From a virus: a stretch of DNA of 64,000 nucleotides. Location of the stretch: IMG/VR virus record IMGVR_UViG_3300042558_005646, one strand, 5' to 3'. The number at the start of each line of letters is the position of its first letter. Position 1 is the first letter of the stretch. Made by a program: the position numbers and the translations under genes. Shown one piece after another: positions 36,029 to 61,631 of the stretch. The notes beneath the pieces were generated by a model. That model did no database searches. It worked only from the letters and a program-made list of their open reading frames with translations, and was not told where the DNA came from.

Positions 36029-36621
36029 TGAAAGAATTTATTGAATATTACGAAAAAATTAAATCAGATAAAGTACATATTATAAATATTGATTCAGTAA
36101 AATTTATTGTAAGAGAAATAACCTGGAAAGAAGGCTTGCTGATAGACGCAAAATCTTTTAGAAAAAAAGACAATATAGTTTATCAAAATTCAGAATTCGA
36201 AAAAAGAGAAATCTTAAGTCTCGCTATTCTACGTGCTTATGATTCTAGTACAAACATAGAATATATCCCAGAATTTGAAACATCTTTGATTCATACAATG
36301 AACCACACAGTAATTGAAAAATTATGGGTGGAATATCAAAACTATCTTTACTTAAATGCAGATGAAGCTAATTTTTATTACATAGCTGCAAAAAAATATT
36401 ACAATCCAAATGATACAGAAACTTATCCTCTTCCCCCTCTAATCGTAGAAATTGATTATATGACAAGAGGATTAGTTTCCATGAGTAAAGATGAATTTGC
36501 AAACTTAAGCATGAAAGAATTTGAAACTATTCAACTTGTTCTGGCTACCAAAAATGAAGTCAAGCCAGAATCAGCTGCTAATTTGGATATAGACTTAGAG
36601 AGAGAATCTCAACGTGTTTGA
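36028..36621 (+). CDS. Putative tail assembly chaperone, 197 aa
   Basis: KFIVREITWKE...EILSLAILR...IEKLWVEY chaperone-like pattern after a tube-like gene; 3' end overlaps the convergent 266-aa gene. Confidence 0.5.
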   Translation: MKEFIEYYEKIKSDKVHIINIDSVKFIVREITWKEGLLIDAKSFRKKDNIVYQNSEFEKREILSLAILRAYDSSTNIEYIPEFETSLIHTMNHTVIEKLWVEYQNYLYLNADEANFYYIAAKKYYNPNDTETYPLPPLIVEIDYMTRGLVSMSKDEFANLSMKEFETIQLVLATKNEVKPESAANLDIDLERESQRV

Positions 36622-37395
36622 TTCTTTAGCAAGAAAATGATTTGCTAATTCTGTTCTATCCCATTGATGAAATATGCAGTAAGGAACACCATCTTTATTG
36701 GTGACTTGCTTACCATCAAAGAAAACTTCTACATTATCACGCTTTATAGCTTCTCCAGTACATGCAAAAGTATCATTGTAAGGATGACATAACATATTCT
36801 TAGGATTATTCTTGAGATATTGGCTTAAGTATCCCAAAAATTGTTGATCCATAACCAAGAATTGTGATTTTCTATTTGTATTTGAAAACATCATCAAACA
36901 GTGATTGATCATATGTTCAATTTTGCCTCCAAATATTCCCCCATTAATCACCCATTCATCTTCATAAGAATCATTGTGAGACCTGAGCATTGTTCTCAAA
37001 GATTGTTCCCACCATAAATTACAGTCATTTTCTTTTATCTTCATGCCTTCCAATGAATAAAACATATTTATATCAGGATGAGATTCAAAAAATTGAAAAG
37101 GATCTGTTTGTATAACTACATCTCTCAAGTCAGAATGCATAACGTATTTATATTCATCAACATGTTCTGAAAGCCAATTATACAAAGCTAAATAACTTGT
37201 ATATAAATTCTCATTATTAGGAATGATGATATCGAAGTATCTTTCTAGCTTCTTAATGTTCTGAGGACTGACATTACTTACAAATACTGCCTTTTCAAAT
37301 GTTTTAAATTTTGAAAGTGAGTTCAAGAAAATATCACCTTCTAAAGAATCAATGCATTTATCTCCGACAGAAAAGTTGACCAGTAAATTTTTCAA
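36595..37395 (-). CDS. Putative GT-A fold glycosyltransferase, 266 aa
   Basis: VMHSDLRDVVIQTDPF (DxxD), INGGIFGG, MDQQFL and C-terminal HQWDR motifs. Confidence 0.6.
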   Translation of the reverse strand: MKNLLVNFSVGDKCIDSLEGDIFLNSLSKFKTFEKAVFVSNVSPQNIKKLERYFDIIIPNNENLYTSYLALYNWLSEHVDEYKYVMHSDLRDVVIQTDPFQFFESHPDINMFYSLEGMKIKENDCNLWWEQSLRTMLRSHNDSYEDEWVINGGIFGGKIEHMINHCLMMFSNTNRKSQFLVMDQQFLGYLSQYLKNNPKNMLCHPYNDTFACTGEAIKRDNVEVFFDGKQVTNKDGVPYCIFHQWDRTELANHFLAKESNTLRFSL

Positions 37396-38219
37396 TTTAA
37401 TTCATCCCTTAATTTATTATATGTATTTTTTATACCCAAATGTAATCCAAGCAAATCTATATCAAATAAATGCAAATTATAATCACCGTAATAATTTAAT
37501 CCAAAAGAGCTGCTATTGACAACAATATCAACTTTATGGTCGGACAATTCATTTATAATTTCCGCAATTGTACTAAGCTTGTATTTTTCTTGGTAAGAAC
37601 AGTTAATAATTTTTTGTGAAGTATTTGATTCAATAACAAATTTTATAACTTCACATAAATCATCCATATAGAAAAAATCCATCCATTTATCTTGATGAAT
37701 TACAATTGGTTTTTTATTTATGTAATTAACAATACTTGCTTTTATCATTCTAGAAGAAAGTTCATCTTCATTGAAAACATTAAATATTCTTATATTATGA
37801 AAATTTGGATACAATATTCCAGACTTGGCAATAAAGTTTTTACTCATCCCATAAGGATCAATTGGAAAAGCACTTTTCAATTCAACAGAAGGATCAATTC
37901 CGTATCTTCTGTCTAATTCTGCTCCTGATCCAAATGAAATATATTTATCAAATGAGCAAGCATTATCTAATATATTTTGATGCATTATGCAGTTTTCATA
38001 AAAAACATCTGAAGTATCTTCTTTGAGTCTACTTCCACCAGAAGTAGCTGTGTGAATTACAGCATCAAAAAATCTATGTTCAAAAAATTTTTTTACAGAT
38101 TTGGCATCTATTAAATTCAAGTTGGATCTATTTGCTAAGGTTAAATCATAGTCAGAAAATTGCTTGGCTATATTTCGGGCAATGTATCCATTACTACCAG
38201 TAATTAATAACTTTTTCAT
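37392..38219 (-). CDS. NAD-dependent epimerase/dehydratase/reductase (extended SDR), 275 aa
   Basis: LITGSNGYIA, YGMSK (YxxxK), RIFNVF; start moved to MKKLLIT just after the TPP gene stop. Confidence 0.85.
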   Translation of the reverse strand: MKKLLITGSNGYIARNIAKQFSDYDLTLANRSNLNLIDAKSVKKFFEHRFFDAVIHTATSGGSRLKEDTSDVFYENCIMHQNILDNACSFDKYISFGSGAELDRRYGIDPSVELKSAFPIDPYGMSKNFIAKSGILYPNFHNIRIFNVFNEDELSSRMIKASIVNYINKKPIVIHQDKWMDFFYMDDLCEVIKFVIESNTSQKIINCSYQEKYKLSTIAEIINELSDHKVDIVVNSSSFGLNYYGDYNLHLFDIDLLGLHLGIKNTYNKLRDELN

Positions 38220-38220
38220 A

Positions 38221-39951
38221 TTAGCTCCACTGAGCTTCAGATAGTCTGCCTGGAATAAATCTTCCATTTTCATCCATCTTTGCTACAACTCTAGGTTCAA
38301 AAATTTCATTTGGATCTGTGAAAACTTCGCAAAGACAAGGCCCATCATATTCAAAGAACTCAGTCAATCGACTTTCAATTTCACTATTATTTTTAATAGC
38401 AAAATAAGGTATTCCATATGCATCAGATATTTTTTGAAAATTTGGAAAAGAAACTCCACTTGATTTTTCTGAAGCTACATAATGACCTTTGAAAAATGAT
38501 TTTTGTGTTACTTTGATCGACAAATAACCTTCATTATTTAGCAGTAAAATTTTAATCGGCAAATTGTTGTGCATCATTGTTTGAAGTTCATGAATATTAA
38601 GATGTAAACTTCCATCACCTTCAATACATAATGTTTTTTGCCCAGTAGAAGCAACTCCGATAGCACAAGGAAGGCCATAACCCATAGGGGCACAACCAGT
38701 ATTTGTAATAAGTCTCTGGTTGTCTTTTAGCTTCACTACCTGCATAGTGACAACATTGGCAGATCCATCGCTTGTTACTATGTCGTAAGTAGGGGGAGTT
38801 ATTTCTGATAATTTTTCAATCAAAAAGTAATTACTTACATAATCAGTTTTTTCACGATGTTTGGCTAATACTTTTGGAGACCTCAGAGCTTCACATTCTG
38901 ATATCCAATCTGCTGAAGCTTTATTGATGAAAACTTTATTCAAATTATTTATGAATTTTTTTGCATCTTCGCAAACTTTCATATCAAGTCTAAGTGTAGG
39001 TTTTTCTAATTCGTTTGAGTCAATATCTACTGCAATTTTGTATGCGTTTTTGCCAAAATCATCAAAATTGTAACCTATTTGACGTACATAAAGTCTTGAA
39101 CCAATAGAAATTATAAAATCAGCTTCATTAATAAGCTTATTAGCGCATATCTGAGCATGAGTACCAAATCTCCCATAATAGTAGGGGTAAGATTCATTGA
39201 CAATATCGTTCCCATTAACTGCAGTAATGACAGGTATATTGGTCTTATCTAGAAGCTCAAATAAATTTTCAACAGCTCCTGAAATTCTTACACCATTCCC
39301 AACAATTAGTAATGGTTTCTTTGCTTTATTCCAAGAGTTCACTATAGAAATATAATCTACTGTAGATTGCGTCATCTCAATAATACTTGGCACAAAAGGT
39401 TTCAATTTTGATGGTTCAATTTGAGCAGACTGTACATCTAGGGGAATATCAACCCACACAGGTCCAGGTCTTTTATTAAGTGCAAAATAACACGCTTTTT
39501 CTAGATAATAGCGAATTTCTTCTGGATTGTTTACTTGAACAGCAAATTTTGTCATTGTCTTTGCAGTTTTTACAATATCAAATTCTTGATCACCTAATTG
39601 CCTAAGACTCAATTTAGTGTAATTTGTAGTCATTGGAGTGTTTACTTGTCCACTAATGACTATCACAGGAACTGAATCCAAATAACTGCATAGAGTTCCT
39701 GTGAGGGCATTTGTACCACCAGGACCAGAAGTTACTAAGCAAGCCCCTAGTTTATTCTTCTTTCTAGCGTAACCCTCTGCAGCAATTGATGCTCCTTGTT
39801 CATGATGAGTTGCTATGTAATTTACGTCTTCAGATTTTCCAAGTGAATCAACTAAATGTATACAACCACCTCCTGAAAGTGTAAAGATTGTATCTACATC
39901 ATAGTTATCGTGAAGAAATTTAATTACATAATCTGATAGTTTCATAAACAT
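38221..39951 (-). CDS. TPP-dependent enzyme, acetolactate synthase/YerE-like, about 576 aa
   Basis: HHEQGASIAAEGYAR, VTSGPGGTNA, RPGPVWVDIP, MGYGLPCAIG, EGDGS...LLNN TPP motif. Start may be MKLSDY at 39945. Confidence 0.92.
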   Translation of the reverse strand: MFMKLSDYVIKFLHDNYDVDTIFTLSGGGCIHLVDSLGKSEDVNYIATHHEQGASIAAEGYARKKNKLGACLVTSGPGGTNALTGTLCSYLDSVPVIVISGQVNTPMTTNYTKLSLRQLGDQEFDIVKTAKTMTKFAVQVNNPEEIRYYLEKACYFALNKRPGPVWVDIPLDVQSAQIEPSKLKPFVPSIIEMTQSTVDYISIVNSWNKAKKPLLIVGNGVRISGAVENLFELLDKTNIPVITAVNGNDIVNESYPYYYGRFGTHAQICANKLINEADFIISIGSRLYVRQIGYNFDDFGKNAYKIAVDIDSNELEKPTLRLDMKVCEDAKKFINNLNKVFINKASADWISECEALRSPKVLAKHREKTDYVSNYFLIEKLSEITPPTYDIVTSDGSANVVTMQVVKLKDNQRLITNTGCAPMGYGLPCAIGVASTGQKTLCIEGDGSLHLNIHELQTMMHNNLPIKILLLNNEGYLSIKVTQKSFFKGHYVASEKSSGVSFPNFQKISDAYGIPYFAIKNNSEIESRLTEFFEYDGPCLCEVFTDPNEIFEPRVVAKMDENGRFIPGRLSEAQWS

Positions 39952-40966
39952 TTTCCAGTGCTGTTTTTATTATAGAATAATCTTCAATTTTTTGAATTAC
40001 TGGTTGATTATCTTTGATTAGCACCATGTTAACACAGCCAGTATTTTTCTTATCTGACTTGACACATTCCATAAGGCTCTCATAATCAAACCATTCTTGA
40101 TTAACAGATACTGTATTTTCTAGAAGTTTTTTGACAATATTTAATGTTGCAGAATAATCTTTGTAATTATAGTTATAAGATAGTTCACTTAACCTCAAGG
40201 CTACAAGACATCCAATTGCCACTGCATATCCATGCGATAACTTGTACTTTGAGGTAATTTCTAAAGCATGACCAAATGTATGACCAAAGTTCAGGAATTT
40301 ACGCTCTTTTTTATCAAATTCATCAATCTCTAAAACTGAAATTTTATAATTAAGACTTTTATGAATGTGATACAAAACATTTTTATTTTCAGTAATCAAA
40401 TCAATGACATTTGATTCTTGAATTTTATTTCTCAAGATATCAAACTTCAACAATTCGCCTAAACCACTACAAAAGTTTTCTTTACTTAAACCATCAAGCC
40501 ATTCTTCACAAATAAGAATTTCACAAGGAGGATAAAATGTACCAAGAATATTTTTTCTTGACCCATAATTGATAGAAGTTTTACCGCCAACACAGCTATC
40601 GATTTGAGAAAGCAATGTTGTTGGAACTAAATAATATTCAATACCTCTACAATAAACAGAAGCACAAAAACCCACTGCATCTTGTAAAACTCCACCACCA
40701 ATAACTACAAGTTTAGTTTGCGTATTGACTTTTTTTGCAGCAAATTTATCAAATATTTTTTCTAAACCACGCCATGATTTTAAGTCTTCATTTGTGTCTA
40801 TAACTATGAGATCACCTAATCCAAATTCAGGAAAACAGTGAGCAACATTTTTGTCAACTACTGCAAGATGATAATCTTCACCAATGAGTTTATATATTTC
40901 GCTCAAGCTTACAAAATTTACAGAATAATCTTTGATTTTTGATTTGACATCTATTTGGCTGTACAT
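39920..40966 (-). CDS. 3-dehydroquinate synthase-like sugar-phosphate cyclase, 348 aa
   Basis: IGGGVLQD, PTTLLSQIDSCVGGKT, KN, GELLK, DE..ERKFLNFGHTFGHALE, HG.AVAIG, DKKN. Confidence 0.9.
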   Translation of the reverse strand: MYSQIDVKSKIKDYSVNFVSLSEIYKLIGEDYHLAVVDKNVAHCFPEFGLGDLIVIDTNEDLKSWRGLEKIFDKFAAKKVNTQTKLVVIGGGVLQDAVGFCASVYCRGIEYYLVPTTLLSQIDSCVGGKTSINYGSRKNILGTFYPPCEILICEEWLDGLSKENFCSGLGELLKFDILRNKIQESNVIDLITENKNVLYHIHKSLNYKISVLEIDEFDKKERKFLNFGHTFGHALEITSKYKLSHGYAVAIGCLVALRLSELSYNYNYKDYSATLNIVKKLLENTVSVNQEWFDYESLMECVKSDKKNTGCVNMVLIKDNQPVIQKIEDYSIIKTALENVYETIRLCN

Positions 40967-41589
40967 GAATAACCACCATCTATAACTATATTTTGACCAG
41001 ATATATATGAATTGTTTACACTCAAGTAATATACTAAATCTGCAACTTCATTTGTATATCCCAATCTACCAACTGGAATTTTGCTTCTTAAATCTTTCAA
41101 ATCTTCTTCTGTGTTATTTTGAAAAGTCATATCCGTGATAAAAAATCCAGGAGACACAGTGTTTGCCAAAATATTATAAGTGCCATATTCAGCAGTTATA
41201 GCTTTTGTAAGAGAGTGTAAGGCATTTTTGCTAGCACTATATGAGGATCTTCCAGGTTTTGCATAATCTACCCATACACTTCCAATATTTACAACCCTGC
41301 CATAATTTTGTTTCTTCATATGAGGTAAGCAAAGTTTAAATAATCTTAAAGGTGAGAAATAATTTACTGTCATCATTTCTTCATAATTCTCACCTTCAAA
41401 TATAGAATCTATTATGTTAATACCAGCGTTATTTATTAAAATATCAATTTTGTCTGGAATAAAAGAAAAGGGTTGAGATAAATCAAGTTCTTCACGAGTT
41501 GGAGCAATAACTTCATGACCATATTTTTTGAAAATTTCACAAATATCACTGCCTATGCCTCTTGACCCACCAGTGATAAGTATTCTCAT
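40951..41589 (-). CDS. Classical SDR oxidoreductase (FabG-like), 212 aa
   Basis: TGGSRGIG, NNAG, YSASK, VSPG, GQNIVIDGG. Confidence 0.9.
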   Translation of the reverse strand: MRILITGGSRGIGSDICEIFKKYGHEVIAPTREELDLSQPFSFIPDKIDILINNAGINIIDSIFEGENYEEMMTVNYFSPLRLFKLCLPHMKKQNYGRVVNIGSVWVDYAKPGRSSYSASKNALHSLTKAITAEYGTYNILANTVSPGFFITDMTFQNNTEEDLKDLRSKIPVGRLGYTNEVADLVYYLSVNNSYISGQNIVIDGGYSCTAK

Positions 41590-42386
41590 AATTCAGAAGC
41601 TGATTTATTTATACGAGCTTGAATCATTTTAACTCTTGATTCATCTTGATTGGCTTGAGATTGATAATATTCCATCTTGTTTGTAAGCCATTCGTATTCA
41701 AACATTTGAGCCTTGAATAGTGCTCTGGATAAATTCTTTAGTGTAATTGAAGGATCAAATATTGCATATCTTGTTTCAAACTTATCAAGAAGTTTTTCAG
41801 AGTGTAATTTCTTTAAAAAGTCTAATGAATCAATTGAAACAGCACCACCAATACAAGCTTTAGCACCAAGCTTTTTAGTTCTTTCAAAAACATCATGAGC
41901 CATATTGTAAACTTCTTCAGAATTTACGTGACTTCTATCTGCTCCCATTGAAGAAACTAAATCTACTCTTCCGACAGTAACTCCATACAAAGCAGATGCG
42001 TTTTGGTTTGAAAGAATTTTGTCAATAGCTAAAACTGCAGAAATAGTCTCAATATTCACATTAAGCTGCAACGAACTTACAACTTCGGAAGGTAAATTAT
42101 TATTAACAGCTTGAACAAATTTAGTTAAACCAAATTCAGACTCAACCATCGGGGCTACCAAACCCTTTACTCCAATGATCATAGAGTCTTTGATATCTCT
42201 TATAGCTTCTGGTCCACCTATCTTTAAGGTTACTTTTGTTTTTGCTTGATTACAAATTTCTTTAAGTCTAAGAACTTCATTAAATGCAGCTCCTTCGTCT
42301 TCAAAACTTGTCTTAACGCCAACCAATCCGTAGTTTTCTACTAGATCTGTCAGAATTCTAACACACTCAAATTCTCTATTATTCAT
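41586..42386 (-). CDS. HpcH/HpaI aldolase-citrate lyase family protein, 266 aa
   Basis: KIGGPEA..D...GVKGLVAPMVES, NIET, VTVGRVDL..SMG. Confidence 0.75.
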   Translation of the reverse strand: MNNREFECVRILTDLVENYGLVGVKTSFEDEGAAFNEVLRLKEICNQAKTKVTLKIGGPEAIRDIKDSMIIGVKGLVAPMVESEFGLTKFVQAVNNNLPSEVVSSLQLNVNIETISAVLAIDKILSNQNASALYGVTVGRVDLVSSMGADRSHVNSEEVYNMAHDVFERTKKLGAKACIGGAVSIDSLDFLKKLHSEKLLDKFETRYAIFDPSITLKNLSRALFKAQMFEYEWLTNKMEYYQSQANQDESRVKMIQARINKSASEL

Positions 42387-42401
42387 AAATATATTTTACC
42401 A
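42386..42401 (-). promoter_or_regulatory. Putative extended -10 promoter for leaderless transcript (TGG-TAAAAT-N6-ATG)
   Basis: Minus strand TGG TAAAAT (42398-42393) atattt ATG (42386); overlaps the rmlB Trp and stop codons. Confidence 0.5.
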
Positions 42402-43349
42402 AATGAAATGTGTTTTATAATATTCGACTATCTTTTTGATTTCATCGTCAAAAACACACTGAGGAGTCCAGCCTAAACCTCTAATCTTGTCGTCATTTAA
42501 AGCATATCTGACATCTTGTCCAGGTCTTTCAATTCCAAAATTAATAAAGTCTTGGTAATTATCCACTTCTTTTCCAAAGTATGCGTTCAAAACTTTTCTT
42601 ACTGTGTCTACATTTGATTGCTCAAACCCACCAGCGACATTGTAAATTTCGTTCTGCTTACCAGCCTCAATAATCTTCAACACAGCCAGAGCAGTGTCTT
42701 TTGCATGAAGCCAATTTCTTACTGGAGTACCTTGGTTATGTAATGGTATCTTTCTTTCAAGTCCTATAAATTTGCAAGATTTTGGAATCAACTTTTCAAC
42801 ATATTGTCCTTCGCCATAATTATTTGTAGGTCTTATGATATTGAAAGGTATGTCGTATGTTCTAGACCAAGCAATAATAAGTTGATCTGCAGCAGCTTTT
42901 GTGGCAGAGTAAGGATTACTAGGCTTCAAGATGTCTGTTTCAAAATGCTCACCATCTGCAATATCACCATAAACTTCATCTGTGCTGAAGTGAATTAGGG
43001 TTGGTACTACATATCCTTCTTTTTTGTATGTCTTAAGTAATTCAAGAATGTTGTGAACACCATAAATATTTGAATCAACAAAAACTTTACTGTCTCTTAT
43101 AGAATTATCTACATGAGTTTCTGCAGCTATATTGATAAAATAGTCACAATCCACCAATCTATCAATGTTGCAAATATTTTTATTTTCAAATTTGAATTTT
43201 GGATTAAGCATCCATTTTTCTAAAACACTAACGTCAGAGGCATAAGTACAATTGTCTATGCCATAAACATAGTATCCCTTATCAAGCAAAAGTTGAGTTA
43301 CTTGTCTGCCAATAAAACCTAAACAACCTGTAATATAAGCTAATTTCAT
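42396..43349 (-). CDS. rmlB: dTDP-glucose 4,6-dehydratase, 317 aa
   Basis: AAETHVDNSI, HFSTDEVYGD, PSNPYSATKAAAD, NNYGEGQYVEKLIP, RNWLH, RPGQDVRYAL. Confidence 0.9.
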   Translation of the reverse strand: MKLAYITGCLGFIGRQVTQLLLDKGYYVYGIDNCTYASDVSVLEKWMLNPKFKFENKNICNIDRLVDCDYFINIAAETHVDNSIRDSKVFVDSNIYGVHNILELLKTYKKEGYVVPTLIHFSTDEVYGDIADGEHFETDILKPSNPYSATKAAADQLIIAWSRTYDIPFNIIRPTNNYGEGQYVEKLIPKSCKFIGLERKIPLHNQGTPVRNWLHAKDTALAVLKIIEAGKQNEIYNVAGGFEQSNVDTVRKVLNAYFGKEVDNYQDFINFGIERPGQDVRYALNDDKIRGLGWTPQCVFDDEIKKIVEYYKTHFIW

Positions 43350-44326
43350 TTATTCAATTTACGCTCTATGGTGTTTTTGATAAGATTTAGTACATTCCAG
43401 TCTTCAAAATTTTGTGTGCGAATATATTCACAAGTTCCGTCTGCAAAGTACCAATCAATTGTATCAACGCAAAATAAAATTAAAGTTTTGTTTTCATCAT
43501 AAACAACAGCATCTGTAAAAGATAAGCACCCAGGACCAGACTGACTAGTAACTATAACATCGCAGAATTTATGTAAATATTCAATTTCATCCAAGTTTGG
43601 AATTGGAAAATAATCATCAATATAATAGACATTGTTTGTTTTTATTTCATTAATTTTTGAAGTTAAGAGGAAGCAAATATTTGGATTATCTTTTATGTAG
43701 TCAGACAAAATATCTTCGTAAATATAATTTCTTCTTTGTCCAGAGGTTGTATTACCATTGCAGATCATGACTCTCATATCGTAATGACTTGTATCATTTA
43801 TTAATTTATCTGCAAAAAATTTGTATCTTGGATTGGAATTCCATTTACATACAAATTCTTTATGATCTGGAACCTCTAACTGCTTTGTAGAGAAATTCTC
43901 AATCAAAAAACTATTTATATTGTTGATTTTTTCTTGATAAAGTTTTGATTGCCAAATAGTTGAATCTTGAATTTCTTTACACCCAGAATGATAATTTCCA
44001 TTTTCGTCAGGAAGCTTGTACCCACCAGTTTCAATCTCTCTCATCTTTTCATAACTTGCTGCCCAAACATCTATCCAAAGAGCATCATCAAAGAATTCAG
44101 ACTTAAGATTATTTTTTAATTTCAATGCAGTACAACCATACATAAAATGAGGTAATGCAATTACAGTAACTTTTTCATGAATAAAACAAGTATCTTTGTC
44201 CTTAGTATGTAAATAAAAATAATTAAAATTATCACCTAGTTTATTAACTACCCATCTAACACCTTGTCTTGAGTGTAAAATGTCACCATACCCATGAGAA
44301 TTACAAAAAATAATAGTTTTTTTCAT
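43346..44326 (-). CDS. Putative GT-B (GT9-like) glycosyltransferase, 326 aa
   Basis: N-terminal HGYGDILH and C-terminal CDVIVTSQSGPGCL resemble the GT9 GxGD and DSGPxH motifs; start moved to MKKTIIF. Confidence 0.5.
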   Translation of the reverse strand: MKKTIIFCNSHGYGDILHSRQGVRWVVNKLGDNFNYFYLHTKDKDTCFIHEKVTVIALPHFMYGCTALKLKNNLKSEFFDDALWIDVWAASYEKMREIETGGYKLPDENGNYHSGCKEIQDSTIWQSKLYQEKINNINSFLIENFSTKQLEVPDHKEFVCKWNSNPRYKFFADKLINDTSHYDMRVMICNGNTTSGQRRNYIYEDILSDYIKDNPNICFLLTSKINEIKTNNVYYIDDYFPIPNLDEIEYLHKFCDVIVTSQSGPGCLSFTDAVVYDENKTLILFCVDTIDWYFADGTCEYIRTQNFEDWNVLNLIKNTIERKLNK

Positions 44327-44366
44327 AAAAAAATTATACATTTATTGTTGGTATAATGTTCTCATG
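44324..44366. promoter_or_regulatory. Back-to-back divergent leaderless promoters of the two main glycan operons
   Basis: Minus: TATAAT (44338-44333) N6 ATG (44326). Plus: TGG-TATAAT (44352-44357) N6 ATG (44364). Confidence 0.65.
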
Positions 44367-45703: not shown

Positions 45704-45711
45704 GAGCAACT

Positions 45712-46731: not shown

Positions 46732-46732
46732 C

Positions 46733-49961: not shown

Positions 49962-49964
49962 AAG

Positions 49965-50507: not shown

Positions 50508-51168
50508 TAATAATATAATTAAGAAACCTTGGGGCTACGAGTATCTTGTATATCAAGATACTAATGTAGCTCTTTGGTTTTTATATATTGCTCCAAATCA
50601 TAAAACATCTTTGCACTCTCATCCAAAAAAAACTACAGGATTGATAATTTTGGATGGAAAAGCACAAGTAGATTTTTTTAATAACGAAAATGTCTTAAAC
50701 AAACTTGACAAAATTATGATTAGAAAAGGGATGTTTCATTCAACAACATCTATTTCAGAAAATGGAACAAAACTTTTCGAAATAGAAACCCCAAATGATA
50801 AACTAGATTTAGTTAGATTAGAAGATTCATACGGTAGAAAGGGTTTGCCTTATGAAGATTCATCTTATGAAAATCCGAAACAAGATAATTGTCTTTGGTT
50901 GGAAAATCTTTCACTTTATGAGAATCAAAAACTTTTATTTTCTAATTGCAATCTAAGTATTTTGAATGTTAAAAAAATTACTGATTTGACTTGGTTAGAG
51001 CCGCAGAAAAATGTTATGTTTTTAACTGGTGGTATAATTACTGATTACGAAGTACTTATAGTTTGTCCCGGAGATATAGTCAAGATTGAAATATTACAAA
51101 AAATTGAAACAGTGTTTAATAAAATAAAAGAAAACACATTTGTAATTTTATTTGAAAATTTAGATTAA
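50488..51168 (+). CDS. Cupin-domain protein (sugar isomerase/epimerase-like), 226 aa
   Basis: KPWGYE, TSLHSHPKK, FH, FEIETP; start moved to MQIESH. Confidence 0.7.
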   Translation: MQIESHNNNIIKKPWGYEYLVYQDTNVALWFLYIAPNHKTSLHSHPKKTTGLIILDGKAQVDFFNNENVLNKLDKIMIRKGMFHSTTSISENGTKLFEIETPNDKLDLVRLEDSYGRKGLPYEDSSYENPKQDNCLWLENLSLYENQKLLFSNCNLSILNVKKITDLTWLEPQKNVMFLTGGIITDYEVLIVCPGDIVKIEILQKIETVFNKIKENTFVILFENLD

Positions 51169-51169
51169 T

Positions 51170-52000
51170 ATGAATAACTATTTAGAGAAAGTTTTTGAAA
51201 AAATTTCTTTTTGCAGGCATTTTGAACAATATGTTTATAAAAAAGTGCAAGATAAAACTATCAAAATCCCAGTGTATTTATCAGCTGGTCAAGAAAGTAC
51301 TCCTTGTTCAATTTCAACTTATTTAGAAGATAAAAATATTAAGCCAAATATTTTTATTCAACATAGAGGACATTCAACATACTTGGCTTTTGAAGCGCCA
51401 CCTGAAAAGCTAATTGATGAATTACTTGGGTTAGATTCCGGCTGTGCATTTGGTATGGGAGGTTCTGCTTCTATACAATCTTTAGAAAAAAATATATTTG
51501 GTCATGATGGTTTAATGGGTTCTCAGGTACCTATTGCTGTTGGACATTGCTATCAAACAAAACAACCAACTATTGTTTTTATGGGAGATGCATCTGCGGA
51601 AGAAGATTATGTTGGTGCAGCCATAGGGTGGGCTTCAACTAAAAATCTACCAATTCTATTTGTTGTTGAAGATAATAATTTGTCAATTCTTACAGAAAAG
51701 AAGATTAGAAGAAACTGGAATATGCATGAGCTTGCACAAGCATATAAGGTTGAAGCTTATGACATTGAAGATAGTCCTACAGAAATTTTCAATCATCTCA
51801 AAAATGTTTTTAATACTCCTTTATTGTTGAATGTGAGAACTATCAGAAAATTTTGGCATTCTGGTGCTGGAATTGATGGGGATTATTTTGATAGGCTTGA
51901 ATGGATAAAAGAAACCTTGCAGTTTGATACATCATTTATCGATGAAAACAACAAAAATAAAGTTGAGGCATTATGGCAATCACGCTTAGAGACACTATAA
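51170..52000 (+). CDS. TPP-dependent dehydrogenase E1 alpha-like subunit, 276 aa
   Basis: YLSAGQE, HRGH, GSQVPIAVG, MGDAS..E...NLPILFVVEDN. Confidence 0.88.
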   Translation: MNNYLEKVFEKISFCRHFEQYVYKKVQDKTIKIPVYLSAGQESTPCSISTYLEDKNIKPNIFIQHRGHSTYLAFEAPPEKLIDELLGLDSGCAFGMGGSASIQSLEKNIFGHDGLMGSQVPIAVGHCYQTKQPTIVFMGDASAEEDYVGAAIGWASTKNLPILFVVEDNNLSILTEKKIRRNWNMHELAQAYKVEAYDIEDSPTEIFNHLKNVFNTPLLLNVRTIRKFWHSGAGIDGDYFDRLEWIKETLQFDTSFIDENNKNKVEALWQSRLETL

Positions 52001-52893
52001 AATCAATAGTAAAAGACCATTTAGTTAGCAAAAAAGGCAAAGCATATGGTCAATGCTTAACTGCTGTAGGCTGGGTTGGTGGAACTTTACCAGAGCTTTA
52101 TGAACATGATGGCATGGTTGAACTTTCTATGGCAGATGTTGCTGGTGGTGCAATTGTTGTTGGTGCAGCTTTAGCTGGAGATAGACCTATTTATGTAGTT
52201 AGATATCAAGGTTTTCAGTGGTATAACTGCGTGTCAATTGTTAATTATGCCGCAAAATCTAAATCAATATGGAAAAGGCCTTGTCCAGTTTTTGTGAGAT
52301 CTATTGCTATGGAAGGCGGAATTGGGCCTGTTGCTGGTTCATCTCATCATTCCTTGGTTTATAGAATGCCCGGAATTAAAATTGCAAGTCCCATGTCTCC
52401 ATCAGAATATTTAGAATGTTATGATCATTTTATGAACGATGATGAGCCATACTATATATCTGAACATAGAAAAAGCTATGATAATACATCTAATTTATGT
52501 GATGTTTTTGAAAACGAGACTCCAGATTTTACAATTTTCCCAATTTCAATAACCAGATTTGAAATGGACAAACTAGTTCAATTATGTAAAGAATATAGTA
52601 TCAAGATTAACATATGTAATTTGATGTGGTTGAAACCACTTAAAGTATCCGACAAAGCTATAAAGAGTCTAAGTAATTCAAAATTTGGAGGCTTAGTATT
52701 AGATGATGATTACGAAAGCGGTTGCCAATCACATATTGCTAATCAATTATCAGTATCTTCTAGTAAAATTGTTAGATGCTTGGGCCTGGAAGATAAAACA
52801 GCAGGCTTCTATAACAGAGTTGATGTTCTACCTCCAACTGCTAAAAGTATCGTTGATTTTTTATTGAATATTAAAAACGAAACTAGGGTATAA
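51973..52893 (+). CDS. TPP-dependent dehydrogenase E1 beta/transketolase-like subunit, 306 aa
   Basis: GAALAGDRPI, GPVAGSSH, PGIKIASP, NLMWLKPL, LVLDDD. Confidence 0.85.
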   Translation: MAITLRDTIKSIVKDHLVSKKGKAYGQCLTAVGWVGGTLPELYEHDGMVELSMADVAGGAIVVGAALAGDRPIYVVRYQGFQWYNCVSIVNYAAKSKSIWKRPCPVFVRSIAMEGGIGPVAGSSHHSLVYRMPGIKIASPMSPSEYLECYDHFMNDDEPYYISEHRKSYDNTSNLCDVFENETPDFTIFPISITRFEMDKLVQLCKEYSIKINICNLMWLKPLKVSDKAIKSLSNSKFGGLVLDDDYESGCQSHIANQLSVSSSKIVRCLGLEDKTAGFYNRVDVLPPTAKSIVDFLLNIKNETRV

Positions 52894-52909
52894 TTTATTA
52901 GGGTGTAAA

Positions 52910-54073
52910 ATGTTTTATTTACCATTAATGAACAATAATATTGACAAAGAAGATATTAATTCAGTTATTGATTTTTTATCTCAAGATCAAATTCCCAAGC
53001 TTACAAATGGACCGAAAGTTGCTGAATTTGAGTCTGCTTGGGGAAAATGGCTAGGTACAAAGTATAATTTATTTGTCAATTCTGGAGCATCAGCAAATGA
53101 ATTGACAATGCTAGCTATAGCTCATTTAATTGGTGAAGGGGAAATTATTCTTCCACCACTTACCTGGATTTCAGATATTTCTTCAGTACTTTTTGCTGGA
53201 CATAAACTAGTATTTGTTGATGTAAATTTTACAAATCTTTCCTTTGATATAGAGAAATTAATAGCTGCTATCACCCCAGAAACAAAAGCCATATTTCTTA
53301 CTCACGTTCTAGGAATCAATGGTCTTACCAATGATCTTTTAAGGATATGTGAAGAGAACAACATTCTTTTAATAGAAGATGTTTGTGAATCTCATGGTAC
53401 AACTTTTCAAGATTGCAAAGTTGGAAATTTTGGATTTGCAAGTAATTTTAGTTTTTATTTTGCTCACCATATGTCAACTATTGAAGGCGGTATGATCTCT
53501 ACAAATAATTGGGAATTTTATCAAGTTTGTCGTGCTCTTAGGTCGCATGGAATGACTAGAGAAATGACAAGTGAAACAATGAAAATTTCTATTGCTCAAG
53601 ATAATCCTGACCTTAATCCAGATTTTATTTTTCTAAGACCGGCTCATAATTTTAGAAGCACTGAAATTAATGCTGTAATTGGAATTTCTCAGTTGACTAA
53701 GTTAGATCAAAAAAATAATGAAAGAAGAGAAAATTTTGACTTATTCATATCAAACTTAAATCCTGAAAAATATCATATAGCAATTAATACTGAGGGTAAT
53801 TGCAATTACGCTTTTATAGTAATACTTAAAGAGCCTAATTTTGAAAAACGAAATGCTCTGGAAAATAAACTATCTGAAAATGGAATTGAATTTAGAAGAG
53901 GATTGTCTGGTGGTGGAAATCAAATGAGACAGCCATTTTTTAAGGCTATTTATAACGATTTTACAAATTATCCTAATATTGAACACATTCATAATTTCTC
54001 TTGGTATGTTGGAAACTATCCTGGTCTTGAAAAAGAAAAAATTATCAAATTACTAGAGGTTTTGAATAGTTAA
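52910..54073 (+). CDS. PLP-dependent ColD-like NDP-4-keto-6-deoxysugar 3-dehydratase (DegT/DnrJ fold), 387 aa
   Basis: VNSGASAN, LIEDVCESHG, and FSFYFAHHMSTIEGG with His at the position of the Schiff-base Lys; no Fe-S Cys motif. Confidence 0.75.
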   Translation: MFYLPLMNNNIDKEDINSVIDFLSQDQIPKLTNGPKVAEFESAWGKWLGTKYNLFVNSGASANELTMLAIAHLIGEGEIILPPLTWISDISSVLFAGHKLVFVDVNFTNLSFDIEKLIAAITPETKAIFLTHVLGINGLTNDLLRICEENNILLIEDVCESHGTTFQDCKVGNFGFASNFSFYFAHHMSTIEGGMISTNNWEFYQVCRALRSHGMTREMTSETMKISIAQDNPDLNPDFIFLRPAHNFRSTEINAVIGISQLTKLDQKNNERRENFDLFISNLNPEKYHIAINTEGNCNYAFIVILKEPNFEKRNALENKLSENGIEFRRGLSGGGNQMRQPFFKAIYNDFTNYPNIEHIHNFSWYVGNYPGLEKEKIIKLLEVLNS

Positions 54074-54078
54074 TTTCT

Positions 54079-54849
54079 ATGAAAAGTCAATTTAAAAATA
54101 TAAATATATTAGTTATTGGAGATTCTTGCACTGATATTTTCACTTATGGAAATGTTTATAGATTGGCTCCAGAAGGCCCAGTACCCGTTTTTAATCCAAG
54201 CCATTCTCAAAGTAGTGGTGGAATGGCTTTAAATGTGCATCGCAATATTGTTGCAATAGGAGCAAATGCTACACTAATCTGTCAAGAAGAAGAAATTTAC
54301 AAAACAAGATATGTTGATTATCGGACAAATAGTCTTCTTCTAAGAATTGATACAAACGACAAATCAACAAGAATCAGTAGAGAAGTAATTAGTAAAATAA
54401 AAAATAATCATTATTTAGATGTAGCATACGATGCAATAATTATAAGTGATTATTGTAAAGGTTTTCTTGAAGAGGATGATATTTCTTTCATTGGAAGAAA
54501 TAATAAAAATGTTTTTCTAGACACTAAAAAAATTTTAGATGAATGGTGCAAGAATGTTTCATATATTAAAATAAATGAAACTGAATATGAAAGAACATTA
54601 CATACTATAGAAAAGTTAAATATTAATAAAAAACTTATAATAACAAAGTCTGATAAAGGTTGTGAATTTGATGGAAATATATTTCCAGTTGAAAAAGTTA
54701 ATATTAAAGACTTATCTGGCGCTGGAGATACTTTTATTTCAGGATTAGCTGTAGAGTTTGCAAGATCTAATGATATTTTTAATTCAATTGTTTTTGCTCA
54801 AGAATGTGCTACTAAAGTTGTGCAAAAGAAAGGTGTGTGTACTATATGA
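54079..54849 (+). CDS. PfkB-family kinase, HldE/RfaE domain I (heptose-7-phosphate kinase)-like, 256 aa
   Basis: VIGD, RLAPEGPVPV, GG.ALNV, LLRID, ISDYCKG, INETE, DLSGAGDTF. Confidence 0.85.
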   Translation: MKSQFKNINILVIGDSCTDIFTYGNVYRLAPEGPVPVFNPSHSQSSGGMALNVHRNIVAIGANATLICQEEEIYKTRYVDYRTNSLLLRIDTNDKSTRISREVISKIKNNHYLDVAYDAIIISDYCKGFLEEDDISFIGRNNKNVFLDTKKILDEWCKNVSYIKINETEYERTLHTIEKLNINKKLIITKSDKGCEFDGNIFPVEKVNIKDLSGAGDTFISGLAVEFARSNDIFNSIVFAQECATKVVQKKGVCTI

Positions 54850-55718
54850 TAGATATAGATACAATTATTCGTGAAAGATTAAATCTTCATGATATCTCTG
54901 ACATAGATTGTTATAAAAACATTGACAAAAGAAATGAATTTCATACAAAAATAAAAGACATTATTAATGAACATGTTCCGAAGATTGAATCAAAACATAA
55001 CCCAGAACATGAAGCACTTCTTAAAGATCAAGGATATGTCATTTTTGAAAATTTTTTGAGCCAAGAGCAAGTAAATAGTATTTTAGAATACACTAAAGAT
55101 AAAGCTGGATATAATTTCCATGTTCCTAATAGAGCTTACAATAAAGAAACTAAAATTTTTTCTGACGATATAGATTGGAATATTTTAGCTTATAATACAG
55201 ATGTATTACTTAAAAACGAGTTAATTATCAAAATTATGACTGACCCTGTGTTAGTTTCATTGGCGCAATCATATATAGGTTGCTTGCCCTCTGTACATAT
55301 GCTAAGTATGTGGTGGAGTAAATTCACAGGTGAAGTTTTTCACACTCAAAAAATACACAGAGACGGGGACGATTATAAGTTTTTAGCTTTTTTTGTTTTC
55401 TTGACTGATATTGATGAAAACAATGGACCTCATATTTTTTATCCAAGAACACAAAATGGTTCAGATGATCTTTCTGAAAAAGTTGTTATAACAGGAAAAG
55501 CAGGAACTGCAGTTTTAGCAGATACATTTGCTTGGCATCATGGAGCACCTTTAAAGGAAGGTAAAAGAATGCTAATGTTTATTAGATTTGGTCTATTTAA
55601 AAATAATAATTATTATAGAGATGAAAGCTACGTACATGCTCAAGATTCTGATGTATTCTTTAGTAAAATTGAAGATTCATATACTAATAGGCATTTATTG
55701 AGGTTATTTATCAAATGA
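54846..55718 (+). CDS. Second PhyH-like 2OG-Fe(II) dioxygenase, 290 aa
   Basis: QGYVIFENFL, HRD (HxD), FLTDIDENNGPH, GTAVLADT..WHHG; start moved to ATG 54846 (ATGA overlap). Confidence 0.75.
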   Translation: MIDIDTIIRERLNLHDISDIDCYKNIDKRNEFHTKIKDIINEHVPKIESKHNPEHEALLKDQGYVIFENFLSQEQVNSILEYTKDKAGYNFHVPNRAYNKETKIFSDDIDWNILAYNTDVLLKNELIIKIMTDPVLVSLAQSYIGCLPSVHMLSMWWSKFTGEVFHTQKIHRDGDDYKFLAFFVFLTDIDENNGPHIFYPRTQNGSDDLSEKVVITGKAGTAVLADTFAWHHGAPLKEGKRMLMFIRFGLFKNNNYYRDESYVHAQDSDVFFSKIEDSYTNRHLLRLFIK

Positions 55719-56005
55719 ATATGAAAGAATATTATGCAATGTACTTGACTTTGCATCAAAATAAAATTTGTAGAAGATTGCATGTGTTGGGTCAAATTAT
55801 GACATTACTTTGGATTGCAGGATGTCTTAATTTCGGATATTACTGGTTTCTTTTATTGACTCCTTTTGTAGTATATCCTTTTGCATGGTCAGGACATTAT
55901 TTTTTCGAAAAGAATCAACCAGCAGCCTTCAAGGATCCTTTAAAGGCAAAGATCAGTGATTGGATTATGTTATGGGATATTTTGAAAGGGAAAATAGAAA
56001 TATAA
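55715..56005 (+). CDS. Mpo1/DUF962-like small membrane protein, 96 aa
   Basis: YLTLHQNKICRRLHVLG...YPFAWSGHYFFEKNQPAAF. Confidence 0.85.
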   Translation: MNMKEYYAMYLTLHQNKICRRLHVLGQIMTLLWIAGCLNFGYYWFLLLTPFVVYPFAWSGHYFFEKNQPAAFKDPLKAKISDWIMLWDILKGKIEI

Positions 56006-56808
56006 TGAATTTGTTATTATGGATAAATCAATCAAATGGCGACACTCTGACTGCTATACCTTTAATGGAAGCAATAATAAAACAATTTCCTAATGTAAAT
56101 ATCAAATTTGCATGTTTCAAAAGTCAATCTTATTTAGTAAGACATTTGCCTATACAAATTATTGAAGCCGACGGTAATTACAGAAACCTCGTAATGAGAA
56201 CAAGACCGGATTATTTTTTGAGGAAAATTAAACCATTCATTAAACCAGAAGATACTCTAATTCATCTTTGGGGTGGTCTTTATAATTTAAAGCACATTTG
56301 GCAGGATCAAATCAAAACATTCAATCAACAATGCGCAAATAATAATATAAATTTATTTCTTGATAATTCAGAATTTGGGTATATTGAGTTACCTATAGTT
56401 GATGTAAATGTAAAAGCAAATGCAGTTTATGTAGAAAATAGTCAACCAGTTAGCGGACAAACTAATTTTCAGTATGATATGTATAAATTGGGCTTGATGT
56501 TTCCAAGAATTAATTTTTATACTGTTGGACCAATTAATTTTTCTGCAAATAATGTACATGATTGTAGCAAAAAATCTTTAATAGAACTTTCTAGTATTTC
56601 CAGAAAATGTAAACTTATTTTAGGAAAAGGAAGTGGTCCTTTTTTCTGTACATTAAATGAAGAAAACAAACATAAAACGAAGGTCTTGGCGGGCTTAATG
56701 GGTGGATTTAGATATAAGTTTTGGAATCTAAATGATGAAAATACATTACTACTTGATACTGAACAAGAAATATTTGAGCTATTAAGGCCAATAAATAGAG
56801 GTCAATGA
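56005..56808 (+). CDS. Putative GT9-like glycosyltransferase, 267 aa
   Basis: SNGDTLTAIPLMEAIIKQFPNVNI and CKLILGKGSGPFF; start moved to MNLLLW (TAATG coupling). Confidence 0.55.
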   Translation: MNLLLWINQSNGDTLTAIPLMEAIIKQFPNVNIKFACFKSQSYLVRHLPIQIIEADGNYRNLVMRTRPDYFLRKIKPFIKPEDTLIHLWGGLYNLKHIWQDQIKTFNQQCANNNINLFLDNSEFGYIELPIVDVNVKANAVYVENSQPVSGQTNFQYDMYKLGLMFPRINFYTVGPINFSANNVHDCSKKSLIELSSISRKCKLILGKGSGPFFCTLNEENKHKTKVLAGLMGGFRYKFWNLNDENTLLLDTEQEIFELLRPINRGQ

Positions 56809-56829
56809 AGATCTCTATTTATTGGCCTT
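56784..56829. terminator. Long inverted repeat / probable bidirectional terminator between convergent genes
   Basis: AAGGCCAATAAATAGAG (56784-56800) and its perfect reverse complement (56813-56829); extends 3 bp inward with one G:U. The loop contains the TGA stop. Confidence 0.7.
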
Positions 56830-56856
56830 TAAATTCAGTTCTAATTGATTTTATTT

Positions 56857-58167
56857 TTATTTGTCAAAAAAACTATCCAAAACATCACTTATATAATAAA
56901 TTTGTTCCGGTGTAATTACTGGAGATGTACCTAAAAAGAAAGTATCAGTGGTTACCTTTTTAGCTACAGGAAAATCACCAAGATCCATATCACCAACCAA
57001 ATGACTATAAGCTGGTTGCATAAGAATATTTCCAGCAAAATATGGTCTAGTTTGAATTTTTTTAGATTCTAAATATTGACATAAATCACTTCTCTTAAAT
57101 GGTGCGTTATCTTTTATAGTAATAGGAAATGCAAACCAATTAACATCTGAATTTTTTTGTGCTACTGGAAGAACAAAGTATTCTTCATACTTGCTAAAAA
57201 TATCAAAAAGCAACTTATGATTTCTTTGGCGAAGTTTCTTAATTTCATTAAGTTTATCAATTTGAGCCAACAACATACTAGCTTGAACTTCGATTGGTTT
57301 TAAATTATAACCAATTTCCTCATACACATACTTGTGATCAAAAACTTCACCTGGGATACTTGGCAACCATTCAGAAAATCTTTTATTACAAGCTCCACAT
57401 TCTGTAATATTTTGTTTACCAATACAGAAACAGCCACGCCCCCAATCACGAAAAGAACGAATTACTTTTTCAAGATTTTCATCATTACAAACAACTAATC
57501 CACCCTCACCACAAGTAATGTGATGAGCAGGATAAAAAGAGCAAGAAGCCATTGCGCCAAAGCTGCCTAAGGGATTACCATCAAATGACGATCCAAGAGC
57601 ATCACAGCAATCTTCTAACAAAATCAACCCATAATGGTCGATGATATCTAATAGCCTATACATGTCAGGAGGATTACCAAGTACATGAGCAAATGTAATT
57701 ATCTTGATCTCTGGGTCAGCCTGCAATGTGGCTTCAACATCGTCTAAGTTCAAGTTCAATCCATCTAATGAAATATCTACAAAGACTGGCTTAAAACCAC
57801 ACTGAAATATGGGATTGATTGTAGTGGGAAATCCAGCAATAGGAGTTAGTACTTTGGTTCCTTCAGGCAAATTTAAGTATCTTTTTGACTTAATTGCTGA
57901 CATCATAAGAAGATTTGAACTGCTACCAGAGTTTGTCAATAAAGCATGGTTTTTGCCAAATAAAGAAGCTAATTTCTTTTCAGCTTTATAGGCTTCAGCA
58001 CCAAGAACTAACCAACCATCTAGAAGAGTTGATACTGATCTAACAATTTCAGTATGATCAAAGTAAGGCCCAGCATAATGTACATGATCTTTTCCTGGTC
58101 TCCAACTCTTATTTGGTTCATTCTTGATATACTCTTCTACTAATTTAAGCAATTCTTCTTTGGTCAT
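56857..58167 (-). CDS. rfbH: CDP-4-keto-6-deoxyglucose 3-dehydratase (E1, RfbH/DdhC), 436 aa
   Basis: NSGSSSNL, AGFPTTINP, HVLGNP, EDCCDALG, SFYPAHHITCGEGG, RDWGRGCFC...C..RF (Fe-S), DHKYVYEEIGYNLK. Confidence 0.92.
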   Translation of the reverse strand: MTKEELLKLVEEYIKNEPNKSWRPGKDHVHYAGPYFDHTEIVRSVSTLLDGWLVLGAEAYKAEKKLASLFGKNHALLTNSGSSSNLLMMSAIKSKRYLNLPEGTKVLTPIAGFPTTINPIFQCGFKPVFVDISLDGLNLNLDDVEATLQADPEIKIITFAHVLGNPPDMYRLLDIIDHYGLILLEDCCDALGSSFDGNPLGSFGAMASCSFYPAHHITCGEGGLVVCNDENLEKVIRSFRDWGRGCFCIGKQNITECGACNKRFSEWLPSIPGEVFDHKYVYEEIGYNLKPIEVQASMLLAQIDKLNEIKKLRQRNHKLLFDIFSKYEEYFVLPVAQKNSDVNWFAFPITIKDNAPFKRSDLCQYLESKKIQTRPYFAGNILMQPAYSHLVGDMDLGDFPVAKKVTTDTFFLGTSPVITPEQIYYISDVLDSFFDK

Positions 58168-58182: not shown

Positions 58183-58192
58183 TTATTTAAAT

Positions 58193-58224
58193 AAAAAAAG
58201 AGGAGTATTTCTACTCCTCTTTTT
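58193..58224 (-). terminator. Rho-independent terminator of the capsid operon
   Basis: Minus strand GAGGAGTA-GAAA-TACTCCTC followed by T7. Confidence 0.85.
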
Positions 58225-61628: not shown

Positions 61629-61631
61629 TGA

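Follow-up and report, generated by a model that had tools for sequence, protein, structure and literature searches.

A variable, exporter-free nucleotide-sugar island between structural operons of a lake-water jumbo phage: a candidate virion glycosylation system

The flagellin glycosylation islands of Pseudomonas and Campylobacter O-glycosylate a structural protein in the cytoplasm, ahead of its assembly; these islands are hypervariable, lie within a structural gene cluster and carry no exporter. Among tailed phages, virion O-glycosylation was reportedly described by Freeman and colleagues in 2023 for the mycobacteriophages Che8, Corndog and Myrna. This published work on virion glycosylation in mycobacteriophages is cited in PMC12619734, such that the premise of an original prediction for the locus treated here, namely that only giant eukaryotic viruses glycosylate their virions, is outdated. 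Giant viruses are capable of autonomous virion glycosylation (PMC9614988), and clade-specific glycan and sugar gene clusters are described in Megavirinae (PMC10117803). Furthermore, the large T4-like cyanophages S-SCSM2R and P-SSM2 possess gene sets for cell-wall synthesis and modification (PMC12801897). Here we describe an island of 25 open reading frames (ORFs; g1 to g25, positions 36595-58167) in a 64,000-nucleotide stretch of the IMG/VR virus record IMGVR_UViG_3300042558_005646 (the whole stretch is hereafter referred to as the window), which derives from an apparently lytic jumbo phage of lake water. Judged from its genes, the island appears to be a self-contained cytoplasmic glycosylation system, and virion proteins are its most likely acceptor, with a chance close to, though below, even. 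Similar to the flagellin islands, it is a hypervariable sugar island embedded in structural genes and has no exporter. Unlike those islands, it has no Maf- or FlmG-type transferase, and its acceptor would be a virion protein.

The island genes were annotated by Pfam and NCBIfam profile searches, and these assignments support the predicted 25-gene nucleotide-sugar locus. The island sits between convergent head and tail-side operons. The gene beside it on the right is indeed a major capsid gene as proposed (58241-59095, minus strand; phrog_2522, 2.4e-68; 48% identity to gp27 of Bacillus phage G). On the left, the reported 3' overlap between the last flank gene and the first glycan gene is real, with t6 (36028-36621, plus strand) and g1 (36595-37395, minus strand) sharing 27 nt. 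The slot borders and the island genes are as follows.

t6, 36028..36621, plus strand: closes the conserved tail-side operon t1-t6 and borders the slot on the left
g1, 36595..37395, minus strand: GT-A glycosyltransferase (GT); slot anchor and candidate priming transferase
g2, 37392..38273, minus strand: extended short-chain dehydrogenase/reductase (SDR); Pfam Epimerase, 8.8e-21; candidate reductase of the branched sugar (YerF-like role)
g3, 38221..39951, minus strand: YerE-like thiamine diphosphate (ThDP, also TPP) carboligase with all three TPP_enzyme domains
g4, 39920..40966, minus strand: AroB-related, sugar-phosphate cyclase-like; TIGR04425, 4.3e-89, 299 bits (below the 400-bit cut-off)
g5, 40951..41589, minus strand: classical SDR (FabG-like); adh_short, 4.8e-37
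g6, 41586..42386, minus strand: HpcH/HpaI-type aldolase; PF03328, 1.1e-8; opens a leaderless-type unit
g7, 42396..43349, minus strand: nucleoside diphosphate (NDP)-hexose 4,6-dehydratase, RmlB-like; TIGR01181, 5.2e-86, 289 bits (below the 365-bit cut-off)
g8, 43346..44341, minus strand: GT-B glycosyltransferase, GT9-like; AlphaFold2 (AF2) model with a predicted local distance difference test score (pLDDT) of 91.7
g9 and g10, 44364..45703, plus strand: protein of 133 amino acids (aa) with no family match, and extended SDR (Pfam)
g11, 45712..46731, plus strand: GT-B glycosyltransferase; Glyco_trans_1_2, 5.2e-15, over the cut-off
g12-g17, 46673..51168, plus strand: Fcl-like SDR, short SDR, SDR, PhyH oxygenase (g15), DJ-1/PfpI (g16) and cupin (g17)
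g18/g19, 51170..52893, plus strand: E1 alpha/beta ThDP pair (E1_dh, Transket_pyr), without E2 or E3
g20, 52910..54073, plus strand: ColD-like pyridoxal phosphate-type 3-dehydratase; DegT fold; SFYFAHH at the lysine site, without Fe-S cysteines
g21-g23, 54079..56005, plus strand: PfkB kinase (RfaE domain I-like; g21), PhyH oxygenase (g22) and Mpo1-like protein (g23)
g24, 55960..56808, plus strand: putative GT9-like GT-B; template modelling (TM) score 0.76 to GT9 clusters for an Atlas structure (a lead only)
g25, 56857..58167, minus strand: RfbH/E1-type 3-dehydratase forming its own unit; NF011936, 441.5 bits (above the curated 423-bit cut-off)
major capsid protein, 58241..59095, minus strand: right border of the slot; phrog_2522

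For sugar chemistry, all seven SDRs counted previously were recovered by Pfam or NCBIfam (g2, g5, g7, g10, g12, g13, and g14), and Pfam also found the two TPP systems (g3 and g18/g19). The gene read as RmlB (g7) does encode an RmlB-like 4,6-dehydratase, with a score below the equivalog level. The RfbH and ColD-like calls are in line with both the profiles (g25 over the RfbH cut-off, g20 with a DegT fold) and the residue motifs. Because g20 and g25 both have His-His at the site of the Schiff-base lysine of aminotransferases, and because the CxC...CxxC cysteines typical of the Fe-S enzyme E1 occur in g25 (SFYPAHH) only, the island is predicted to encode two 3-dehydratases, one of E1 type and one of ColD type, and no aminotransferase. 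The nearest PDB relative of g3 is the YerE-like JanthE (8rph; 6.8e-117, compared with 3e-75 for acetolactate synthase), and g18/g19 may constitute a second C-branching system, the place of which is taken in relatives by a split pair (n11/n10). No flavodoxin-reductase-type (E3, DdhD) gene was found in the island. The yersiniose pathway thus appears to be matched only in part, by the E1-type and YerE-like enzymes, with no DdhA or E3. Nucleotidyltransferase genes are absent from the window, and NTP_transferase was also not found in eight of the 10 related records searched; it is present in the islands of c1860 (G002) and c12166 (G010; this copy by direct ORF Pfam scan only). Since the island encodes no such enzyme, the starting NDP-hexose would be supplied by the host. 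The 4,6-dehydratase, the E1- and ColD-type 3-dehydratases, the carboligases, and the reductases would then turn this NDP-hexose into 3,6-dideoxy and C-branched sugars. The cassette g25-g7-g6-g5-g4-g3-g2 is colinear, at 46-70% identity, on a low-GC contig (L098) of a metagenome-assembled genome (MAG), on which g2 comes after g3; given this colinearity, the cassette appears to be one coherent pathway unit.

An AroB-like cyclase, a PfkB kinase, oxygenases, ThDP carboligases, and DJ-1 also recall the clusters for aminocyclitols and deoxysugar antibiotics. By this account, the product would be a soluble glycoside or cyclitol-type small molecule that serves as a secondary metabolite or a signalling compound of the infected cell. 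We consider this improbable, since there is no gene for a scaffold synthase (polyketide, nonribosomal peptide, or terpene), an aminotransferase, resistance, or efflux in the island, and four GTs with O-antigen-like cassette turnover are a better fit to a polymeric surface glycan.

Four GT-like proteins had been proposed, among which g11 (by Pfam), g1 (GT-A), and g8 (GT-B, GT9-like) are retained and g24 stands on the Atlas lead only. The AF2 model of g1 (pLDDT 88.8) has Foldseek matches to glycogenin, LgtC, alpha-1,3-galactosyltransferase (alpha-3-GalT), WbbM, and A64R, a capsid glycosyltransferase of PBCV-1, and a TM of 0.80 to a protein of an uncultured phage in BFVD. Residues D89, R91, D92, and HQWDR243-247 of g1 are invariant. 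For g8, which probably starts at 44326 rather than 44341, the top Foldseek match is the GT9 heptosyltransferase WaaC (4.5e-6, TM 0.52), and there is also an Atlas lead. Sequence searches of g1, g8, and g24 gave no PDB match and no Pfam or NCBIfam match, and membership in GT8 or GT9 is not supported by sequence; the likeness of g1 and g8 to these families lies only in the fold (TM about 0.5, with an identity of 10-15%). The g1 family comprises 1996 representative clusters at E values up to 0.001. Among its distant members (L109 and L111), transferases fused to an N-terminal methyltransferase occur (454 aa), and on another phage-like contig, a distant homologue is located between SbcD-like, SbcC-like, and ribonucleotide reductase genes. 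None of the distant homologues examined adjoins flagellin, pilin, or lipopolysaccharide (LPS) genes.

The A64R match raises the question of DNA hypermodification, in which sugars on modified phage bases would block restriction and CRISPR nucleases. Phage GT-A enzymes with PBCV-1 A64R as the top PDB match glycosylate 5-hydroxymethylcytosine (bioRxiv 10.1101/2023.12.21.572611), the g1 homologue next to the Sbc-like and reductase genes would suit such a role, and the island contains two 2-oxoglutarate-type oxygenases (g15 and g22). However, these oxygenases are PhyH rather than Tet/JBP proteins, the island is away from replication genes, and the known DNA glycans are simple beside a 25-gene pathway. 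In addition, the enzymes that start the known routes to DNA glycosylation were not found in island-bearing relatives: ThyA homologues (PF00303) are absent in five relatives, and C5-methyltransferases (PF00145) are absent in the island-bearing relatives (88-89% complete). Tet_JBP (PF12851) had no match in relatives either, but the control for that search also matched nowhere, which makes this negative uninformative. The two former results weaken the DNA alternative, which was raised in the original prediction, and we regard it as very improbable.

For export, no protein with more than two hydrophobic segments is encoded in the island or in the 17 mapped related contigs; most have zero or one such segment, and the maximum of two occurs in g23 and in g4 homologues. 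Wzx (PF01943) had no match in near-complete relatives, and Wzy and ABC2 families were not searched genome-wide. The priming transferases PF02397 (Bac_transf, WbaP) and PF00953 (Glycos_transf_4, WecA) are absent from the island and from the five related records searched for export and priming genes, four of which are 84-100% complete. No enzyme for lipid A, Kdo (3-deoxy-D-manno-octulosonate), or carrier lipids was found. These results bear out the predicted lack of export machinery. The accompanying claim that a 96-aa Mpo1-like protein is the only membrane protein holds insofar as g23, a small Mpo1-like membrane protein of this length, has two hydrophobic helices and no protein is polytopic. 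NDP-sugar modification genes and GTs are present as in surface-polysaccharide loci; because priming transferase and exporter are lacking, the locus appears to fall outside the Wzx/Wzy and ABC classes of polysaccharide loci.

The absence of an exporter is not proof of protein glycosylation, because soluble enzymes of GT8, GT9, or GT4 type also act in the cytoplasm to glycosylate LPS core, wall teichoic acid, and flagellin, all of which rely on host export routes. Accordingly, remodelling of the host envelope or host proteins has to be weighed, in which the transferases, working on the cytoplasmic side, would decorate flagellin, pilin, wall teichoic acid, the core of LPS or lipooligosaccharide (LOS), or a lipid-linked repeat unit, and the host would export the product. 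Receptors could thereby be masked against superinfection, or progeny could be kept from sticking to debris. The resemblance of g8 and g24 to GT9 heptosyltransferases and of g1 to the GT8 LPS/LOS transferases LgtC and WbbM agrees with such a role, as do the RfaE-kinase-like g21, the retention of the small membrane protein g23 in most variants, the operation of LPS-core, teichoic-acid, and flagellin glycosylation without a locus-encoded exporter, and the occurrence of about 22 cell-wall synthesis genes of unknown role in large cyanomyoviruses (PMC12801897). However, the fold matches are remote, lipid-A, Kdo, and carrier-lipid enzymes are missing as noted above, and the fixed position between head and tail-side genes of an apparently lytic jumbo phage is a better fit to a virion role. 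We regard host remodelling as less likely than a virion target, but as a serious rival.

To compare slot content, related loci were merged into 17 contigs and their ORFs were clustered. The layout is constant and consists of t6, g1, a minus-strand module ending in g7, a plus-strand module starting with g9-g10, g25, and the capsid gene. The slot, measured from the capsid gene to t6, has sizes of 0, 0.9, 2, 8, 12.5, 17, 17.7, 20.8, 22.4, and 23.5 kb, and this range covers relatives with capsid proteins that are 96-100% identical. The expectation of a variable glycan island at the same position in related phages is thus borne out. Synteny of t6 with g1 is found in 10 related contigs, among the 12 mapped contigs that contain t6; g1 is absent in c0004, and the contig of c12166 ends before g1. 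The slot is island-free in L026/G003, contains g1 as the sole island gene in the smallest variant (L015), and contains g1, one methyltransferase, and one unknown gene in L105. The whole record of the island-free G003 is devoid of DegT and SDR-epimerase genes, indicating that the system is accessory and confined to the slot. The g9-g10 pair opens the plus-strand operon in six of eight g9-carrying contigs (intervening genes are present in c3493 and c6101), the block of g20, g21, and g23 recurs in most variants, and g11 has zero to three copies per relative. Pooling the genes of all variants brings in an RmlC-like epimerase, split pairs of E1 and of acetolactate synthase, a B12-radical-SAM enzyme, methyltransferases (FkbM and others), NeuB, and a GHMP kinase; a ferredoxin-like gene occurs in other variants only, and a HAD-nucleotidyltransferase fusion occurs in two variants only.

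Different islands are found within one metagenome (3300035670_012166 and _012130; 3300027770_003655 and _004229). Hypervariability within one strain was ruled out, because the flank DNA of the relatives is 76-87% identical to that of the window; the island variation lies between species of a clade. The capsid gene differs from those of relatives (L002-L048) by 0-11 aa changes against 29-124 nt changes, with 88 nt differences and a single aa difference in one relative, and the capsid protein is under extreme purifying selection. In L105, the capsid protein is 98.6% identical, while t6 and g1 are 38% and 41% identical, respectively.

Chimerism at the junctions, which the original prediction had named among the findings that would refute it, was ruled out. 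Ten independent contigs share the t6/g1 junction, and several more share the junction of g25 with the capsid gene, including the same terminator; these contigs are from different metagenomes. For window 50500-60400, a 9.9-kb stretch over the capsid-side junction, 89% or more of the sampled words are present in each of no fewer than 14 lake-water runs, which come from 14 studies (2018-2024). Contigs of one 2018 run and one 2024 run matched stretches of the island without any difference, and in both of these runs, every one of the 30 bins in window 40401-60400 has depth. Across the lake metagenomes of 2018 to 2024, the genotype is stable.

For expression signals, island units start with GTA(T/A)AAT, exactly 6 nt, and ATG, and the head genes have AAGGAG Shine-Dalgarno (SD) sites. 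The motif occurs six times in the window compared with 0.83 expected, and none of 100 shuffles reached six. Sites and related elements are as follows.

GTA(T/A)AAT-N6-ATG, 42384-42399: start of g6
GTA(T/A)AAT-N6-ATG, 44324-44339: g8, start 44326
GTA(T/A)AAT-N6-ATG, 44351-44366: start of g9
GTA(T/A)AAT-N6-ATG, 58165-58180: start of g25
GTA(T/A)AAT-N6-ATG, 22362-22377: start of a 182-aa zinc-ribbon gene
divergent back-to-back -10-like boxes (GTATAAT), 44326..44364: spaced 6 nt from the g8 ATG and the g9 ATG, respectively
hairpin with a 15-bp stem, 56786..56827: bidirectional terminator-like, between the convergent g24 and g25
terminator hairpin with T-run, 58193..58219, minus strand: immediately follows the capsid gene; upstream of the -10-like box of g25

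The form at the g6 and g25 starts is GTAAAAT-N6-ATG. The motif at the island gene starts is retained in relatives, and the box at the g25 start is kept in 11 of 13 of them. In the relative G001, two of four strict motif matches lie in the island, which makes up 5% of the genome. This spacing would correspond to the geometry of an extended -10 promoter for leaderless mRNA; a generic sigma-70 promoter scan found no enrichment. A terminator scan of window 35500-55400 found no sites, compared with 7.1 +/- 2.6 in shuffles, and a terminator-free 20 kb of the island fits long polycistronic units. Hairpins similar to that upstream of g25 are present in c3343, c3756, c4106, and c3380; c12130 has a remnant that includes a T-run. 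From these signals, the island seems to consist of several transcription units, each self-contained. Morons likewise carry sigma-70-like -10 boxes and terminators, which counts in favor of host remodelling. Contigs of two metatranscriptomes cover the capsid gene, h2, and h3, and the island is represented by short low-identity scraps only; because these RNA data are at the contig level, they are uninformative on island expression. River and lake metatranscriptome contigs have a high summed depth over the capsid gene, h2, and h3 (window 58410-60400), and phages of this clade are probably active in the samples.

Regarding the acceptor, the preferred reading is that g1, the conserved GT-A enzyme, adds the first sugar to a conserved acceptor and that swappable cassettes then extend it into a species-specific glycan. 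This acceptor would most likely be a virion surface protein, such as the capsid or a decoration protein, or tail or fibre proteins, such that the particle surface would vary while the capsid protein sequence is nearly frozen. A virion target is supported by the fixed position of the island within a structural block, by the combination of a conserved anchor transferase with a variable elaboration module, and by a near-frozen capsid protein that adjoins a diversifying glycan locus. The mycobacteriophage and giant-virus precedents also favour it. Cytoplasmic transfer onto virion proteins, as originally predicted, is consistent with a system that is phage-borne, non-chimeric, soluble, and export-free; no acceptor signature was found in virion proteins, and the absence of an exporter is not decisive.

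Several observations weigh against a virion target. The capsid protein has no serine/threonine (S/T)-rich C-terminal extension, and the virion proteins have no S/T-rich C-termini. SxSx motifs and S/T runs number 15 compared with 9.8 +/- 3.0 in shuffles, with none of them long and no enrichment. GT8-like, GT9-like, and GT4-like folds are also the set found in LPS-core synthesis, and GT-A enzymes matching PBCV-1 A64R can glycosylate DNA (bioRxiv 10.1101/2023.12.21.572611). The distant g1 homologues are in uncharacterised, phage-like, non-structural contexts. Finally, the island units use leaderless-type -10 boxes, unlike the SD-led head genes, and co-expression with the virion is unsupported. 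Taken together, we tentatively suggest, at a chance somewhat below even, that these phages have glycan serotypes, in which g1 primes a virion protein and cassettes of 0-23.5 kb build rare 3,6-dideoxy/C-branched glycans.

If virion proteins are the target, phage glycan coats would extend beyond mycobacteriophages and count as a major trait by which abundant environmental phages diversify, with a bearing on adsorption, grazing and particle stickiness in lakes, and antibody recognition in phage therapy, and the islands would supply enzymes for rare branched deoxysugars. If the serotype proposal is also correct, this would be the first case of a bacteriophage whose NDP-sugar tailoring pathway for virion glycosylation is full and autonomous, and a prokaryotic counterpart of the mimivirus fibril glycans. 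If the host envelope is the target instead, no larger phage-borne system of surface conversion would be known from an apparently lytic phage. With either target, the fixed slot and its conserved anchor transferase provide a simple marker for genomic surveys.

In the remainder of the window, the upstream plus-strand operon includes a Mu gp36-like head-tail adaptor (23638-24132), a 1567-aa protein, and the six conserved genes t1-t6. These six genes have no family match in Pfam or PHROG, and tblastn against phages was also empty; the label of tail tube and chaperone given to them previously is thus unsupported. To the left of this operon is a 3469-aa protein (1488-11897, minus strand) with 11 PKD domains and an RCC1-like propeller or repeats, which is probably a fibre or adhesin. 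Its 1324-aa neighbour is rich in Asn and Lys, in a stretch with a GC content of 0.23-0.25. The GC content of the island (0.29-0.33) is the same as that of the tail-side genes and of the bulk of the phage, and the head genes (58000-64000) have 0.37-0.43 compared with about 0.31 in the rest of the window. Gene h2, which is upstream of the capsid gene and by position corresponds to the decoration protein of phage G, is tandemly duplicated in 3300035670_012130 (L011/L086). Relatives of the capsid protein are found at 155 loci in IMG/VR, on contigs of up to 488 kb. Phage G was dropped as a model for the flanks, as the capsid protein is the sole match of the window to this phage. Host inference from RfbH relatives was also dropped, since the top "genome" matches are small MAG contigs. 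One of these contigs (L101; JBBARF010000157.1), binned in a Bacteriovoracaceae MAG, is the present phage, with a 100% identical capsid protein. The contig with the colinear cassette (L098; JBMOHW010000076.1; GC 0.35) is binned in a Terrimicrobiaceae MAG and may be a misbinned phage contig too.

Compared with mycobacteriophage virion O-glycosylation, both systems have phage-encoded soluble GTs in tailed phages, in mycobacteriophages sometimes with methyltransferases, and the capsid protein of the island phage belongs to the same PHROG family as Myrna-type capsids. Unlike in mycobacteriophages, the island adds a 20-gene deoxy/branched-sugar pathway in a fixed slot between head and tail-side genes; no C-terminal acceptor extension is apparent on the capsid protein of the phage. 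Giant viruses (chlorovirus A64R, Megavirinae) likewise encode rare bacterial-type sugars and cytosolic GTs in clusters that differ among clades, and g1 matches chlorovirus A64R at the fold level, with an identity of only 10-15%. In contrast to giant viruses, the island is found in a tailed phage with a prokaryotic host, and its predicted sugars are 3,6-dideoxy and C-branched. The 4,6-dehydratase, E1-type dehydratase, YerE-like carboligase, and reductases of the island are shared with O-antigen and capsule loci as well as with the yersiniose pathway (DdhB, RfbH/E1, YerE, YerF), and cassette turnover between conserved flanks is a further feature in common with O-antigen and capsule loci. Unlike these loci, the island has no DdhA-type nucleotidyltransferase, E3 reductase, priming phosphoglycosyltransferase, Wzx, Wzy, or ABC exporter. 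Similar to T4-like cyanophages, it represents a large set of GT and NDP-sugar genes in a big aquatic phage, but it belongs to another phage lineage, and its genes are gathered in a single slot as one compact island, of which the anchor GT is conserved. Virion glycosylation in phages and large sets of glycan genes carried by phages have been published previously, whereas the size of the pathway, its rare-sugar chemistry, the slot-and-anchor layout with a turnover of 0-23.5 kb, the leaderless-type cassette starts, and the abundance and persistence of the phage in lakes are new.

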